Origin: Felis catus
Taxonomy: Eukaryota
Length of the DNA: 64,000 bases
Direction: 5' to 3'
Assembly: GCF_018350175.1 (NCBI RefSeq)
Contig: NC_058377.1
Location: 103,788,001-103,852,000 of the forward strand
Part shown: positions 5,925-62,010 of the stretch, in pieces
How positions within the stretch are numbered: the stretch's first letter is position 1
Layout: every line of letters starts with the position of its first letter
The notes under the pieces: generated by a model
Told to the model about the DNA's origin: nothing
What the model saw: only the letters and a program-made list of their open reading frames with translations
Database searches by the model: none
Translations under genes and position numbers: made by a program

Positions 5925-6869
5925 ATGGGCCAGAGCAACCACACCAATGTGAAGGAATTTGTCTTCCTAGAACTCACTCACTTCCAGGAGCTGGAATGTT
6001 TCTTGTTTGTGGCTTTCCTTGCTGTATATGTAACCACCGTGCTGGGCAATGCCGTCATTGTGCTGACCATCACCTGTGAGTCCCACCTTCACACTCCCAT
6101 GTACTTTCTGCTGCGGAACAAATCGGTCCTGGACATTGTTTTTTCATCTGTCACTGTTCCCAAGTTCCTGGTGGATCTGTTATCAGAGAGGAAAACCATC
6201 TCCTACAATGGCTGCATGGCACAGATCTTCTTCTTCCATTTTGCTGGTGGGGCAGATATTTTCTTCCTCTCCGTGATGGCCTATGACAGATACCTTGCAA
6301 TCACCAAACCCCTGCATTATGTGACCATTATGAAGAGAGAGGTGTGGGTGGGCTTGGTGGTGGCTTCCTGGGTGGGCGGTGGTTTGCACTCAATTGTCCA
6401 GATAATTCTGATGCTTCCACTCTCCTTCTGTGGCCCCAACATCCTGGATGCCTTCTACTGTGATGTGCCCCAAGTAGTTAAGCTGGCTTGCACTGATACC
6501 TTTGCTCTGGAACTTCTCATGATCTCTAACAATGGGTTGGTGACCCTGCTATGGTTCCTCTTGCTCCTGGGATCCTACACCGTTATTCTGGTGATGCTGA
6601 GATCTCACTCTGGGGCAGGACGGAACAAGGCCCTGTCCACCTGCACCTCCCATATCCTCGTGGTGACTCTGCACTTTGTGCCTTGTGTCTACATCTACTG
6701 CCGGCCCTTCACTACACTGCCCATGGACACAGCTGTGTCCATCAATAACACGGTCATTACGCCCATGCTGAACCCCATGATTTATACCCTGAGGAACCAG
6801 GAGATGAAGTCTGCCATGAAAAGACTACACAGAAGGCTTGGACCTTCTGAGAGCAGTAAGCTGGGGTGA
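5925..6869 (+). CDS. OR4D6: Olfactory receptor 4D6 ortholog, 314 aa, intact
   Basis: ATG at 5925 (accATGg; the ORF track begins at an upstream GTG). OR motifs [36 protein letters not shown] and N-glycosylation site NHT. The unusual RNKSVLDI and SINNTVITP segments match human OR4D6 as I recall it. Confidence 0.92.
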
Positions 6870-14164: not shown

Positions 14165-15100
14165 ATGGCCCTGAGAAATTATACCAAGGTGTCTGAATTT
14201 ATTTTTTGTGGACTTACCCAGTCTCAAGAGCTGAGCTTGCTCTTATTTTTCTTTTTATCTGTAGTTTATGTAACAACTGTGTTAGCAAATGTTGCCATCA
14301 TGGTCACTGTGACCTACGAGTCCCGCCTTCACACGCCCATGTACTTCCTGCTCCGCAATCTCTCCGTCTTGGACATCTGCTTCTCCTCCATCACCGCTCC
14401 CAAGGTCCTCGTAGACCTCCTGTCAAGGACGAAGACCATCTCCTTCAATGGTTGCATCACTCAGATCTTCTTCTTCCACCTCCTCGGGGGGGCAGACATT
14501 TTTTCTCTCTCTGTCATGGCCTTCGACCGCTACATGGCCATCTCCAAGCCCCTGCACTACGTGACCATCATGAGCAGGGGGCGATGCACTGCCCTCATCG
14601 TGGCCTCCTGGGTGGGGGGCTTTGTCCACTCCATCGTGCAGATTTCCCTGTTGCTGCCCCTCCCTTTCTGTGGACCCAATGTTGTTGATGGCTTCTACTG
14701 TGACGTCCCCCAGGTCCTCAAACTCGCCTGCACCAACACCTTTGCTCTTGAGGTCTTAATGATTTCCAACAATGGTCTAGTCACTACTTTGTGGTTTGTT
14801 CTTCTCCTTGTGTCCTACACAGTCATCTTGATGATGCTGAGATCTCACGCTGGGGAGGGAAGGAGGAAAGCCATCTCCACCTGCACCGCCCACATCACTG
14901 TGGTGACCCTGCACTTTGTGCCCTGCATCTATGTCTACGCCCGGCCCTTCACCGCCCTTCCCATGGACAGAGCTGTCTCCATCACCTTCACGGTCATCAT
15001 CCCGGTCCTGAACCCCATGATCTACACCCTCAGGAACCAGGAGATGAAGTCAGCCATGAAGAGATTGAAGGGAAGACTTATGTTTTCTGAAAGGGGATAA
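14165..15100 (+). CDS. OR4D-subfamily olfactory receptor, 311 aa, intact
   Basis: Complete ORF with [39 protein letters not shown]1 has AN instead of GN. Exact ortholog not recognised. Confidence 0.93.
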
Positions 15101-27623: not shown

Positions 27624-28559
27624 ATGGAGCTGAGAAACTGCACCAGGGTGAAAGAATTTACTTTCCTTGGTCTAACCCAGAATCAAGAGCTGAGCTTGGT
27701 CTTATTTCTTTTCCTGCTTCTCGTGTACGTGACAACTCTGCTGGGAAACCTCCTCATCATGGTCACTGTGTCCTGTGAATCTCGCCTTCACACCCCCATG
27801 TACTTCCTGCTCCGTAATTTATCTATTGCCGACATCTGCTTTTCCTCCATCACTGCTCCCAAGGTTCTGGTGGACCTGCTGTCACAGAGAAAGACCATCT
27901 CCTTCAATGGCTGCTTCACCCAGATGTTTTTCTTCCACCTTGTCGGAGGGGTGGATGTGTTTTCATTATCAGTGATGGCATTGGATCGATATGTGGCCAT
28001 CTCCAAGCCTCTGCACTACGTGACCATCATGAGTAGAGGTCGTTGCATTGGATTCATAGTGGCCTCCTGGGTGGGGGGCTTTGTCCACTCCATTGTGCAG
28101 ATTTCCCTGTTGGTTCCACTCCCGTTCTGTGGACCCAATGTTCTTGACACTTTCTACTGTGATGTCCCCCAGGTTCTCAAGCTCTCCTGTACAGACATTT
28201 TTATACTTGAGTTGCTGATGATTTCCAATAATGGACTGCTCACCACACTGTGGTTCTTCTTCCTCTTGGTGTCATATATGGTCATATTATTAGTAGTAAG
28301 GTCTCAGGCAGGGGAGGAGAGGAGGAAAGCCATCTCCACCTGCACCTCCCACATCACTGTGGTGACCCTGCACTTTGTGCCCTGCATCTACGTCTATGCC
28401 CGGCCCTTCACTGCCCTCCCCACAGATAAAGCCATCTCTGTCACCTTCACTGTCATCTCCCCGCTGCTGAACCCCTTGATCTACACGCTGAGGAACCAGG
28501 AGATGAAGTCAGCCATGAGGAGATTGAAGAGAAGACTCATGCCTTCTGACAGGGAATAG
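27624..28559 (+). CDS. OR4D10: Olfactory receptor 4D10 ortholog, 311 aa, intact
   Basis: All OR motifs present. [32 protein letters not shown] and TDIFILELL match recalled human OR4D10. Confidence 0.85.
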
Positions 28560-28870
28560 ACAGGTAGCTCACTCCTTTCACTCCTTCTCAGCACCCTTGA
28601 AAACATTTGTCCATGAAATAAACTGCTATTTATTCAAGGATTTCTGATTAACTTTTAGATTTCTTCTAAGACCCAGAGGACTTTCAAAGATTCTGCTCAG
28701 CATACAATAATGACAAAATCTGGGTTCCATGTTACAAAAGAAATCAAATTGTTAGCCAGAGAGGTACATGTTGTTTTTGCAATACAACCTTGGAAGAAAT
28801 AAGAAAAACAGAATCAAAATATACTCAGTTTTATCAATTTGGAATTTTCTATTCTATTGAGATACAATTA

Positions 28871-36759: not shown

Positions 36760-37695
36760 ATGGAGTTGGGAAATAGCACAAGGGTAAAAGAATTTATATT
36801 TATGGGACTTACTCAGTCCCAAAACCTGAGTTTGGTCCTATTTCTTTCTTTGTGCTTGGTATACATGACAACTCTTCTGGGAAACCTCCTCATCATGGTC
36901 ACTGTGACCTGCGAGTCCCGCCTTCACACGCCCATGTACTTCCTGCTCCGCAATCTCTCCGTCTTGGACATCTGCTTCTCCTCCATCACCGCTCCCAAGG
37001 TCCTCGTAGACCTCCTGTCAAGGACGAAGACCATCTCCTTCAATGGTTGCATCACTCAGATCTTCTTCTTCCACCTCCTCGGGGGGGCAGATATTTTTTC
37101 TCTCTCTGTCATGGCCTTCGACCGCTACATGGCCATCTCCAAGCCCCTGCACTACGTGACCATCATGAGCAGAGGGCGATGCACTGCCCTCATCGTGGCC
37201 TCCTGGGTGGGGGGCTTTGTCCACTCCATCGTGCAGATTTCCCTGTTGCTGCCCCTCCCATTCTGTGGACCCAATGTTGTTGATGGCTTCTACTGTGACG
37301 TCCCCCAGGTCCTCAAACTTGCCTGTACAGACACCTTTGTACTTGAACTCCTGATGATTTCCAACAATGGCTTAGTCACTACCCTGTGGTTTATTTTCCT
37401 GCTTGCATCCTACACAGTCATCTTGACAATGCTAAGGTCTCAGGGAGGGGAGGGAAGGAGGAAAGCCATCTCCACCTGCACCTCCCACATCACTGTGGTG
37501 ACCCTGCACTTTGTGCCCTGCATCTACGTCTATGCCCGGCCCTTCACTGCCCTCCCCACAGATAAAGCCATCTCTGTCACCTTCACTGTCATCTCCCCGC
37601 TGCTGAACCCCTTGATCTACACGCTGAGGAACCAGGAGATGAAGTCAGCCATGAGGAGACTGAAGAGAAGACTCATGCCTTCTGACAGGGAATAG
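36760..37695 (+). CDS. OR4D11: Olfactory receptor 4D11 ortholog, 311 aa, intact but mosaic
   Basis: N-terminus [23 protein letters not shown] and TM5 [11 protein letters not shown] match recalled human OR4D11. Middle and 3' end are shared with paralogs in this window. Confidence 0.8.
36891..37319 (+). repeat. Homogenised OR core shared with 14296-14724 and 61206-61634
   Basis: About 4-6 differences per pair over about 430 bp by eye, including silent sites. Confidence 0.95.
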
Positions 37696-37919
37696 ACAGG
37701 TAGCTCACTCCTTCTCAGCACCCTTGAAAACATTTGTCCATGAAATAAACTGCTATTTATTCAAGGATTTCTGATTAACTTTTAGATTTCTTCTAAGACC
37801 CAGAGGACTTTCAAAGATTCTGCTCAGCATGCAATAATAATGACAAAATCTGGGTTTCATGTTACAAAAGAAATCAAATTGTTAGCCAGAGAGGTACATG
37901 TTGTTTTTGCAATACAACC
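37456..37919 (+). repeat. Near-identical copy of 28320-28789 (OR4D10 3' CDS plus 3' flank)
   Basis: Direct alignment shows only a few substitutions and two small indels. Confidence 0.95.
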
Positions 37920-37964
37920 ATGAGGAGACTGAGGAGAAGACTCATGCCTTTTGTAATGGAATAG
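37920..37964 (+). pseudogene. Orphan OR C-terminal fragment MRRLRRRLMPFVME*
   Basis: atgaggagactgaggagaagactcatgccttttgtaatggaatag aligns without gaps to the last 15 codons of OR4D11 (37651-37695). Confidence 0.9.
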
Positions 37965-40900
37965 TATAAGTATCTCCAACCTCTTCATCACCAAGGACTC
38001 CTTTCATTATTTTTTCCATAAAGTCATATTTATGTAACCAAATACGTTGTCAATAAACCAACTATACTTACTAGATAGCAATTTATTTTCCTATTTAATA
38101 GGTTACTGATAACTTAAGTTTCTGGTGAGCATGCAGATAACTAGTATTATAGGACTGAGCTGATTGATGTGTTTCTATTCAAGGACAACTATATGGCAAG
38201 TAAAGACACAGATTGAATCTAACACCTTTTTCAGCAGGCAAGTTAATAGAAGTCTAAGTATGAGTGATTTGCTCAAAATCTTATATCAAGTGAATTGCAG
38301 AGAAAAGTCTTCAGATACCTAATCTATTGTCCTTCTGCCATAAGAAGGCAATGTGTTACATTACCAGAACTGTCTACACCAAACTGCAATCCTGTTCTAA
38401 GAAAGATCTTATGATCCGTGCTCCGGTAGTACACATATATGGGTGCATATGTCCTATCACAGATTAGGGAATTTTCTCACCTTAAACTCCACATGGGGAT
38501 GTGACCACTGAGAACCTCAAGTAGTACGTAATGGTTGTCCTACTGGATTCCTATCAGGAATGAAGAAACTTGGGCCTAAAAGGATTTATCACATGCAGAG
38601 CCAGACAAGCCAGATGCACATTCTCATGATAAGTTTAGGCAAAAGCAGAACCTCAGGAATCTTATACGAAGAGCAACCCATTCTCATTATTTAAGAACCA
38701 ATTCCAGTCTCATTGGCTTCACTATTAAGGATTTACATTCTTCCCACCAAAGAGGAAGAGAGGAGGTGTTCAAGAAAGTAAAATTCTAATCAGTCTGTTT
38801 TTCAATCTGTTGATGTTTGGGGAAATGTGGTATAGGCTAGTTTTTTATCTGGGAGAGCATGGGAAAGACATAAAGTAAAAAAGTAAAGCCTTGTGACCTG
38901 GATCCAGATCCTGTCTCTGCCATCTACCAGCTGTGTGACCTTGAGCAAGTTATTTTATCTCTCTTCAGGTCATAGTTCATTTATGCAAAGATATTTATAA
39001 TGTCCATTTCATGGAGTCATTGATATAGTTAAAAGGAAATGATATACGTGAAACACACAATGCCCAGCAGATAGTAAATGTTCAGTGCAAGACAAATGTC
39101 ATTTTCAATATCACCCTTACTGCTCTGCCTAACACACATTCGGTCCCCCATGAGCCTATTGCACTCTTCTCCAATATGGCCCGTATTCCTCATTATCAAG
39201 GAAAAAAACCTGATGGGATAAAAAGCAAAGTAATGTACACTGAATTCAAAGCATCTATCATCTTAAAATTTCTAGTGTTCTGTCATTAAAATATGACAAT
39301 AGATTTGCTTGCTATTCATTCACATCAAAGAGACATCCTATAGCTGATGAGATACAGCACAGGAGAGTTTCATACCAAAAGAATAATGAGTCAAAGATAA
39401 ACCCTAGCTGTGAAGGTGATATAAGGCGTCAGATAAAAAAGTCAGACAGACTCAGTAGGCTAGAAGAGAGCCCAAGTAAAGTTAGCCAAAGGGTAGTGAG
39501 TATTGGGGATGAACTTCAGTTATATCTGTCATTGGATCTGGGCTGGCCTCATAATCATTCATCAACTGACTGGCTCAATCATTTGCCATTCCTGTCACTT
39601 GATCAATCAATTCCAACTTTTTACAGTATTAACCTACTTCCTCTAGCATGAAAATTCTAAGAATAATTCACACTTAAGTCACCATTCATAGAGTCCTGCC
39701 ACATTACTTGTATAGCTTTGGTCTCGAGTCCTTAGGCTTTTCTTTATGAAATTGTCTATAAAAAATGCACACCACAAGCCACTTTATGATCCATTTCATG
39801 CAAATATGTCCTATCCTTTCCTTCGTATCTCATATTTTTACTGCTATGTCAGAACTGGATGGCACCGAAGATATATGGGGTGTGAATCATTGTATCACTG
39901 GAGCATAATCCCAAAGGTCGAGAACCCAGAAACCGCTTCCACACCATGGCTCCCGACACTTCCTCAACCATCTCTAAATAAACATACAACATAACCTGAT
40001 CAATAATTCAGGGGAAGGGAAAAGCAATACATCTTATTACACAAACATACATCATTTATATGGATGACATAAAATCACAACATGGATGGGCTGCATTTTT
40101 TTCCATTTAAATAAGATTTTATTATTTTTGCAGTTCTGCTGTTAACTGCCATAGGAAATTTAACGACTCTGGGTATACGTAGAGCTTTCGAATTACCCTT
40201 TCCTGCATTACTCCCTGAATCAAACGTTTTAATGATAAACATCTCTGGGTACCTGTGAACCCAATAACATAAAATAACTTCAAAATAATTAAATTGATGA
40301 ATATCAAGAACTGTCACTGTGCTACGCTCCTAGGTCCTAAGTGAACTGTAGATTTCAGAGATGTAGTAGATTAAGGTAATTGCAGAGGGACAATGTACCT
40401 ATTGCATTAAACAGAAATTGCACAGATAAATCTACACTGTCCAGTCTCTGAGAGCTGCCCTATCAGTAGCCACAGAGCTTTAATTTTTTCCATTGGTACT
40501 CTTTTACTTAAGTTTCATTTCCCAGCTGATTGCAAGCAAATAGATTTTGGTCAGGAGGAAGACTGCACAGTTCCTTGTGGGGATGGTGTCGTTGAACACA
40601 ACTTTTCTTCTTGAGCCAAGGGGGATAATGCACTGTCTCATATACTTCCTCCAGAGAAAAGCTTGTGTCCTGAATGTGCATTGGGACCTCTGCATTATGT
40701 GTGAGATGGGGCAGAGAGGAGATGAGGGAGTCCCATAGGAACTCCGCTGAATTGGCCACTCAGCTTCCCTGCATATACCCAACAGTATTCCCTTTGCTCA
40801 TTCCTATATTTGGCTTGTGGCTGAGGGACTAATTGAGATGGCCGAGGCACTATAGGGCAAAGTGGAGGAGTCAGTTGGATGTGATTCCCTGAAGCTTCCT

Positions 40901-47295: not shown

Positions 47296-48232
47296 ATGGA
47301 TCAGGGAAACTACACCAGAGTGAAAGAATTTATTTTCCTGGGAATTACTCAGTCTCAAGAGCTGAGCTGGGTCTTGTTTGGCTTCTTGTTTTTGGTGTAC
47401 ATGACAACTCTGCTGGGAAACCTCCTCATCATGGTCACTGTGACCTGTGAGTCTCACCTTCACACCCCCATGTACTTCCTGCTCCGCAATCTCTCTGTGC
47501 TTGACATCTGCTTCTCCTCCATCACTGCTCCCAAGGTCCTAGTTGATCTTCTGTCAGAGAAAAAAAACCATTTCCTTCCATGGCTGTGTCACCCAAATGT
47601 TCTTCTTCCATCTTCTTGGAGGAGCAGATGTTTTTTCTCTCTCTGTGATGGCCTTTGATCGCTATGTAGCCATCTCAAGACCCCTTCACTATATGACTAT
47701 CATGAGTAAGGGACGATGTACTAGCCTGGTGCTGGCCTCCTGGGTGGGGGGCTTTGTCCACTCCATCGTGCAGATTTCTCTGTTGCTGCCCCTCCCCTTC
47801 TGTGGACCCAATGTTCTTGACACGTTCTACTGCGATGTTCCCCAGGTCCTCAAACTCGCCTGCACCGACACCTTCACTCTAGAGCTCCTGATGATTTCCA
47901 ATAACGGACTGGTCAGTTGGTTGATTTTCTTCTTTCTCCTCATATCTTACACAGTCATCCTGATGATGCTGAGGTCTCATGCAGGGGAGGGAAGGAGGAA
48001 AGCCATCTCCACCTGCACCTCCCACATCACCGTGGTAACCCTGCACTTTGTGCCCTGCATCTATGTCTACGCCCGGCCCTTCACTGCCCTCCCCACAGAT
48101 ACTGCCATCTCTGTCACCTTCACCGTCATCTCCCCTTTGCTCAATCCTATGATCTACACACTGAGGAATCAGGAAATGAAGTCAGCCATGGGGAGACTAA
48201 AAAAACGACTAGGGCATTCAGAAAGGATTTAA
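47296..48232 (+). pseudogene. OR4D9: OR4D9 ortholog with a single +1 frameshift (recent pseudogene or sequencing error)
   Basis: [17 protein letters not shown] and [10 protein letters not shown] match recalled OR4D9. Span is 937 bp against 936 in the paralogs. A8 run at 47560-47567 where A7 restores the frame; ORFs 47296-47658 and 47543-48232 join there. Confidence 0.88.
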
Positions 48233-61074: not shown

Positions 61075-62010
61075 ATGGAGCAGGGAAATTACACCAGGGT
61101 GAAAGAATTTATTTTTCAAGGACTGACCCAGTCCCGAGAGTTAAGCTTGGCCTTATTTCTTATGTTATTTCTGGTGTACACATCAACTCTTCTGGGAAAC
61201 CTCCTCATCATGGTCACTGTGACCTGCGAGTCCCGCCTTCACACGCCCATGTACTTCCTGCTCCGCAATCTCTCCGTCTTGGACATCTGCTTCTCCTCCA
61301 TCACCGCTCCCAAGGTCCTCGTAGACCTCCTGTCAAGGACGAAGACCATCTCCTTCAATGGTTGCATCACTCAGATCTTTTTCTTCCACCTCCTCGGGGG
61401 GGCAGACATTTTTTCTCTCTCTGTCATGGCCTTCGACCGCTACATGGCCATCTCCAAGCCCCTGCACTACGTGACCATCATGAGCAGGGGGCGATGCACT
61501 GCCCTCATCGTGGCCTCCTGGGTGGGGGGCTTTGTCCACTCCATCGTGCAGATTTCTCTGTTGCTGCCCCTCCCCTTCTGTGGACCCAGTGTTGTTGATG
61601 GCTTCTACTGTGACGTCCCCCAGGTCCTCAAACTCGCCTGCACCAGCACCTTTGCTCTTGAGGTCTTAATGATTTCCAACAATGGCTTAATCTCTACACT
61701 ATGGTTTGTCTTCCTCCTTGTGTCCTACACAGTCATCTTGACGATGCTGAGGTCTCACGCCGGGGAGGGAAGAAAGAAAGCCATCTCCACCTGCACCGCC
61801 CACATCACTGTGGTGACTCTGCACTTTGTGCCCTGCATCTACGTCTACGCCCGGCCCTTCACTGCCCTTCCCATGGACAGAGCTGTCTCCATCACCTTCA
61901 CGGTCATCATCCCGGTCCTGAACCCCATGATCTACACCCTCAGGAACCAGGAGATGAAGTCAGCCATGAAGAGACTGAGGAAAAGACTTGGACCTTCAGA
62001 AAAAGAATAG
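61075..62010 (+). CDS. OR4D-subfamily olfactory receptor, 311 aa, intact
   Basis: ATG at 61075 (ORF track begins at an upstream TTG). MEQGNYTRV start and all OR motifs. Closest in-window relative is 14165-15100. Confidence 0.93.

Follow-up and report, generated by a model that had tools for sequence, protein, structure and literature searches.

The window under study, a 64-kb stretch of the Felis catus genome, carries six OR4D olfactory receptor (OR) genes on the same strand, starting at 5925, 14165, 27624, 36760, 47296 (frameshifted) and 61075. Two of these, both on the plus strand and both encoding 311 amino acids (AA), are of interest here: OR4D10 (27624-28559), of which the first 45 AA are 100% identical to felid proteins named OR4D10, and OR4D11 (36760-37695), an intact gene with an OR4D10 tail at its end. 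The first 45 AA of OR4D11 are 89-100% identical to those of carnivoran OR4D11 and at most 82% to those of other paralogs, and outside the converted segments the gene is nearest to named OR4D11. Both genes keep the names assigned in the original prediction, given 99% identity to Lynx rufus OR4D11 for the gene at 36760 and a grouping with felid OR4D10 for the one at 27624.

Sequence sharing is extensive among the neighbouring genes. The genes at 14165-15100, 36760-37695 and 61075-62010 are nearly identical over approximately codons 50-190, with identical runs of 150-200 nt between them (181, 197 and 176 nt), and differ at their ends; those at 14165 and 61075 also have the TM6-TM7 region in common. 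The OR4D cluster is under strong concerted evolution, and OR4D11 is a mosaic. The OR4D9-like gene at 47296-48232 (937 nt) has a frameshift near codon 90 and is likely a pseudogene.

The copied tract and the stranded tail of OR4D11

Alignment of 37456-37919 with 28320-28789 (plus strand), which comprises the 3' coding end of OR4D10 and 230 nt of its 3' flank, confirmed the original prediction of a near-identical copy, as the two differ by three substitutions and two indels. One substitution is located in the 240 coding bases (C at 37660, T at 28524), while the other two and both indels (9 nt and 3 nt) are located in the 224-nt copied flank. The coding stretch of 37456-37650 matches OR4D10 at all 195 nt, whether through this or other conversions, whereas upstream of the tract 134 of 672 coding positions differ between OR4D10 and OR4D11. 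What marks the apparent left edge is a recent change in OR4D10, of which residue 232 (28317-28319) is Glu in Felis catus and Gly in other felid OR4D10 entries; OR4D10-like silent sites ('C-like') begin approximately 22 nt left of 37456, near 37434.

On the right side, the homology with OR4D10 ends after ...CAATACAACC (37919 in the copy, 28789 in the donor), and the sequence restarts, as had been predicted, as a diverged OR tail of 45 nt (37920-37964), the translation of which is MRRLRRRLMPFVME followed by a stop. This stranded tail aligned with the end of OR4D11 with a local score of 70, compared to a maximum of 33 in 2,100 shuffles (20 per gene, 105 genes). Over its 45 nt, it has 5 differences from the present OR4D11 tail, 6 from that of OR4D10 and 11-18 from those of three other paralogs tested. 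The net gain is 269 bp (37651-37919, donor equivalent 28515-28789), consisting of the last 14 codons of OR4D10, its stop and the 224 nt of flank. OR4D11 thus has the new C-terminus that was originally proposed, its coding end being that of OR4D10 (PSDRE), and the AATAAA noted in the gained flank is present at 37744-37749 as a candidate signal copied from the donor (28617). The single-copy sequence of 37965-38400 is likely the original OR4D11 3' flank and contains an AATAAA at 38052; the copied AATAAA lies 48 nt past the new stop and the one in the old flank 87 nt past the old stop.

Whole-genome DNA searches, in which common words were skipped, gave no other source for either piece, the matches being the window's own paralogs. 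The copied OR4D10 flank, when compared on its own with 37965 onward, gave no significant match (score reached in 2 of 100 shuffles). When 37965 onward was compared with the flanks of the other five genes in the window, the scores were 32-40 and were matched by 3-18 of 30 shuffles, except for the gene at 61075 (0 of 30 shuffles, but a weak 53/83 match 230 nt away). These flanks provide no convincing source for 37965 onward and so give no support to the loss of a seventh, different OR by deletion.

Near-identical paralog ends are prone to misjoining during assembly; an erroneous fusion of the OR4D10 end onto OR4D11 is nevertheless very improbable, given that copy and donor differ by three substitutions and two indels and that the same swap is encoded in independent assemblies of Lynx, Prionailurus and Leopardus. 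The insertion of a reverse-transcribed OR4D10 mRNA with a 15-nt target-site duplication (CCATGAGGAGACTGA) was also considered, as the insert is flanked by a 15-nt perfect block and position 37660 is C in OR4D11 and in the stranded tail but T in the donor. However, the same C occurs in two other paralogs, so that the T of the donor likely arose by a later mutation. The junction, reading ...CAATACAACC and then ATG, has no poly(A) of the kind left by L1-mediated TPRT, and an exact in-register landing in a paralog would require homology anyway, which makes this route scarcely credible.

A scan of OR genes indicated how rare the arrangement is. The loci scanned were the top 100 of 144 matches outside the window, taken from the best 150 of 1068 candidates; 99 had a usable gene end and, together with the six window genes, gave a set of 105. 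OR4D11 was the only gene (1/105) with a second copy of its own tail in the 2.2 kb downstream of it. Other arrangements were observed in the same set. The adjacent genes L006 and L007 (contig C37) are 94% alike over the 3' coding sequence and approximately 144 nt of flank, in a tract that passes through the stop codon and has no stranded tail. Internal OR fragments lie in the 3' flanks of L050 (153 nt, 1391-1543 after the gene end) and L064 (448 nt, 1425-1836 after), and a 19-nt tandem repeat is found at the gene end of both L071 and L072, which are recent whole-gene duplicates.

Outgroup proteins and the direction of transfer

Outgroup proteins were collected from a homolog search (best 120 of 2021) and from two protein clusters (15 of 18 and 16 of 106 members), the second of which added no species. 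Of the carnivoran OR4D11 entries from outside the Felinae, 13 have a genomic-type tail, and seven of these end in exactly the stranded peptide, namely those of lion, spotted hyena, striped hyena, elephant seal, walrus, fur seal and sea lion. In one partial hyena entry, 13/13 residues agree, otter has one change, two bears have three and two meerkat models have more; PSDRE ends none of the 13. Rhino, horse, whale, hippo and bat OR4D11 show related ends (PSVME, PSVVE, PPVME, PSVMQ and LSVME, respectively). The old tail of big cats is represented here by one protein sequence (P0127, common to two Panthera records; the lion OR4D11 ends KST-MRRLRRRLMPFVME), four further big-cat entries being 305-AA models that hide the tail. 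By contrast, PSDRE ends all five Felinae OR4D11 entries with a full tail (P0121, P0003, P0125, P0128 and P0132; Felis catus, Lynx rufus, two Prionailurus and Leopardus), a count that leaves aside as uninformative one truncated puma entry and nine alternative models of 305 AA, five from small cats and four from big cats. In cats, hyenas and meerkat, the end of OR4D10 is PSDRE or PTDRE. No canid OR4D11 ortholog was found among the best 120 homolog matches, the canid ones being OR4D9-like.

Together, the outgroup OR4D11 tails and the PSDRE of OR4D10 identify OR4D10 as the donor, OR4D11 as the recipient and the stranded piece as the ancestral OR4D11 end. The proposed direction and the notion of an 'old C-terminus' are thereby borne out, and the outgroup comparison that had been suggested gave, at the protein level, the expected result, with the stranded peptide placed directly on the coding sequence in lion, hyena and pinniped OR4D11. 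The reverse direction, OR4D11 to OR4D10, is ruled out by the same tails. The donor was unchanged, OR4D10 retaining PSDRE in cats and hyenas, as in a non-reciprocal transfer. Judged from these sequences, the tail swap is common to four small-cat genera (Leopardus, Lynx, Prionailurus and Felis), with the swapped tail known from proteins in the first three and the stranded piece from Felis catus DNA.

Two further features of these entries were observed. The 305-AA OR4D11 models of nine felid entries (37651-37662 and 40815-40832) end in MRRLWLRD, with the final piece placed at 40815-40832; the intron that this implies has CT...GC on the plus strand, which corresponds to GC-AG on the minus strand, and it may therefore be an intron of an antisense transcript or an annotation artefact. 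In hyena, OR4D10 shares with OR4D11 an Arg that is Lys in cat OR4D10, and the OR4D11 of aye-aye ends with PSDRK (P0072, P0089 and P0026), so further independent exchanges of the 3' ends of OR4D10 and OR4D11 are possible in these species.

The junction, the proposed repair route and its age

The arrangement of the tract suggests that OR4D11 probably suffered a germline break, after which OR4D10 was copied past the end of homology and the old end was rejoined by microhomology. The break would have occurred near codon 298 of OR4D11, inside the tract homologous between the two genes, as one-step invasion requires. The left end would have invaded OR4D10, 9 kb upstream, via the near-identical TM6-TM7 region (SDSA or replication template switch), and synthesis would have run to 28789, 230 nt past the donor stop. 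With no homology left, the displaced strand would then have been joined at CAACC/CC to a right end that had not been resected, in a Pol theta-type joining. The old tail of OR4D11, the peptide of which is ancestral by outgroups, adjoins the OR4D10 flank directly at this second junction. The left edge would be placed between 37446 and 37664 if the event is small-cat specific, because lion also has Gly229; the 80 copied codons may come from one event or several, as the OR4D cluster converts repeatedly.

At the junction (37915-37919), the donor reads CAACC and then TTG, and the present recipient context CAGCC and then ATG; the exact shared bases are CC, the microhomology reported in the original prediction. 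Of 1000 donor positions, 163 have an exact match of at least 2 nt and 5, the observed one among them, have the 6/8 match of junction and recipient; the box for the latter was defined once the junction was known. The mismatch falls on the first base of codon 297, which encodes Thr in 5 of 150 proteins, all of them big-cat OR4D11, and Ala or Ser in the other 145. The big-cat Thr codon is assumed from the protein to be ACC, one step from GCC. With Thr as the state at the time of the event, the predicted microhomology is the 5-nt CAACC (0.5% by chance), and it may thus have been CAACC rather than CC. By our judgement, there is a fair likelihood that Thr is cat-ancestral, that the join was made by a perfect CAACC and that the copy then replaced codon 297 with the donor Ala, while a big-cat Thr297 coincidental to the event is improbable. 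Pol theta-mediated end joining is described as mismatch-tolerant in PMC13015775, and the junction would resemble such joining, with one mismatch between CAACC and CAGCC or a perfect 5 nt under Thr.

The event would be placed on the small-cat stem, approximately 10-11.5 million years (My) ago, with the big-cat Thr codon as the likely state then. The limits of this bracket, which applies if the favoured small-cat-stem reading holds and to a sample outside the caracal and bay-cat lineages, are taken from the ages given in PMC4691742: at least 10 My for the progenitor of the ocelot lineage, and over 11.5 My for the split of Panthera. For such an age, a flank divergence of 2 substitutions in 221 nt is low; the probability of so few is 0.18-0.12 if 1e-9 per site per year is assumed, 0.04-0.02 with 1.5e-9 and 0.18-0.002 over the range of 1-2e-9, and a later re-conversion of the flank is therefore possible.

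The same final sequence, from the same donor, could be produced in two steps, in which an unequal crossover between OR4D11 and OR4D10 duplicated approximately 9 kb, giving a chimeric OR4D11 with the OR4D10 end followed by a whole OR4D11, and a microhomology-mediated deletion then took out the interval reaching from the copied flank to codon 298 in the second copy. According to PMC5104497, similar rearrangements can arise from long-tract conversion and from crossing over, and recent whole-gene OR duplicates do exist in the Felis catus genome (L011/L012, flank identity 99.7% over 1742 nt; L089/L090, 97.8%). This route is nevertheless unlikely, as it calls for two events, which would likely both have to fit in the short small-cat stem, and for a deletion end landing by chance within the shared tract of approximately 240 nt, and no felid with two OR4D11 copies was found among 15 of 18 cluster members.

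Residue 228 and codon 297 bear on another reading, which we regard as doubtful, in which the copy-and-join preceded the split of big and small cats and big cats later lost the 269 bp by recombination between direct repeats (37646-37695 and 37915-37964, 88% identical over 50 nt). Deletion of 37648-37916 would make A 37917 the first base of codon 297 and give Thr followed by the old tail, which is the lion protein, with Thr limited to big-cat OR4D11 (5/150). Residue 228 is Gln in all cats, as in OR4D10, and His in the other carnivoran OR4D11 listed, a hint of an older conversion in cats; together with the OR4D10-like silent sites from near 37434, it would fit one long early tract. However, Gln228 is also found in horse, rhino, whale and bat and may therefore be a retained state, such a pop-out would be expected to resolve more often within the perfect blocks of 15 or 17 nt, with Ala remaining, and the small flank divergence favours a young insert. 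If true, this reading would mean that the stored old allele is back in use in big cats, with Ala297Thr as a scar readable in sequence.

Relation to known repair outcomes and consequences for OR4D11

Interlocus gene conversion among OR paralogs is a non-reciprocal transfer between cluster neighbours, and in its ordinary form sequence is replaced, length is unchanged and the old allele is erased. OR4D11 is similar in the non-reciprocal transfer, which is pervasive in the window, and differs in its non-homologous right end, the 269-bp gain and the old tail kept downstream. One-sided invasion, reportedly proposed by Belmaaza and Chartrand in 1994 for experimental breaks, has a homologous junction on one side and a non-homologous one on the other; the same two junction types are found here, as an evolutionary record in a coding gene. 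The same repair outcome was described in mouse ES-cell reporters in 2016 as homologous recombination (HR) that terminates in a non-canonical way (PMC5104497). As in the product outlined there, OR4D11 has one end homologous to the template (a left junction in long homology, 37456-37650), copying beyond homology (224 nt of donor-only flank, 37696-37919) and a net insertion, and its second end may likewise have been joined by microhomology. The reporter system uses induced breaks in somatic cells, a sister-chromatid template, kilobase tracts and a resected second end, whereas the OR4D11 event is natural and germline-fixed, with a paralog template 9 kb away, a tract of at most approximately 0.5 kb and a second end without visible loss. 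OR4D11 is probably a clean natural example of an already known repair outcome; no earlier description of the event was found in the literature listings searched, in which six papers that name both genes have the look of gene lists.

In the protein, the swap altered four residues of the cytoplasmic tail; the receptor pocket is predicted to be unaltered and the proximal 3' UTR to be swapped. No GT donor or fitting AG acceptor for splicing onto the stranded tail was found by eye at equivalent positions. C-terminal motifs are able to alter OR surface expression and cAMP signalling (PMC12315510). The functional effect of this swap is likely small, as ends of the PSDRE/PSERE type occur naturally on OR4D11 of primates, rodents and armadillo.

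Paralog conversion usually erases the overwritten allele, so that the donor, the direction and the repair route must be guessed. In OR4D11 the old end is preserved and confirmed residue for residue by outgroups, and the junction would record how copying stopped, providing a probable, dated germline case of an outcome of repair otherwise seen mostly in reporter cells. The insert is also a near homoplasy-free marker of the split between small and big cats, and a caution for OR gene trees.
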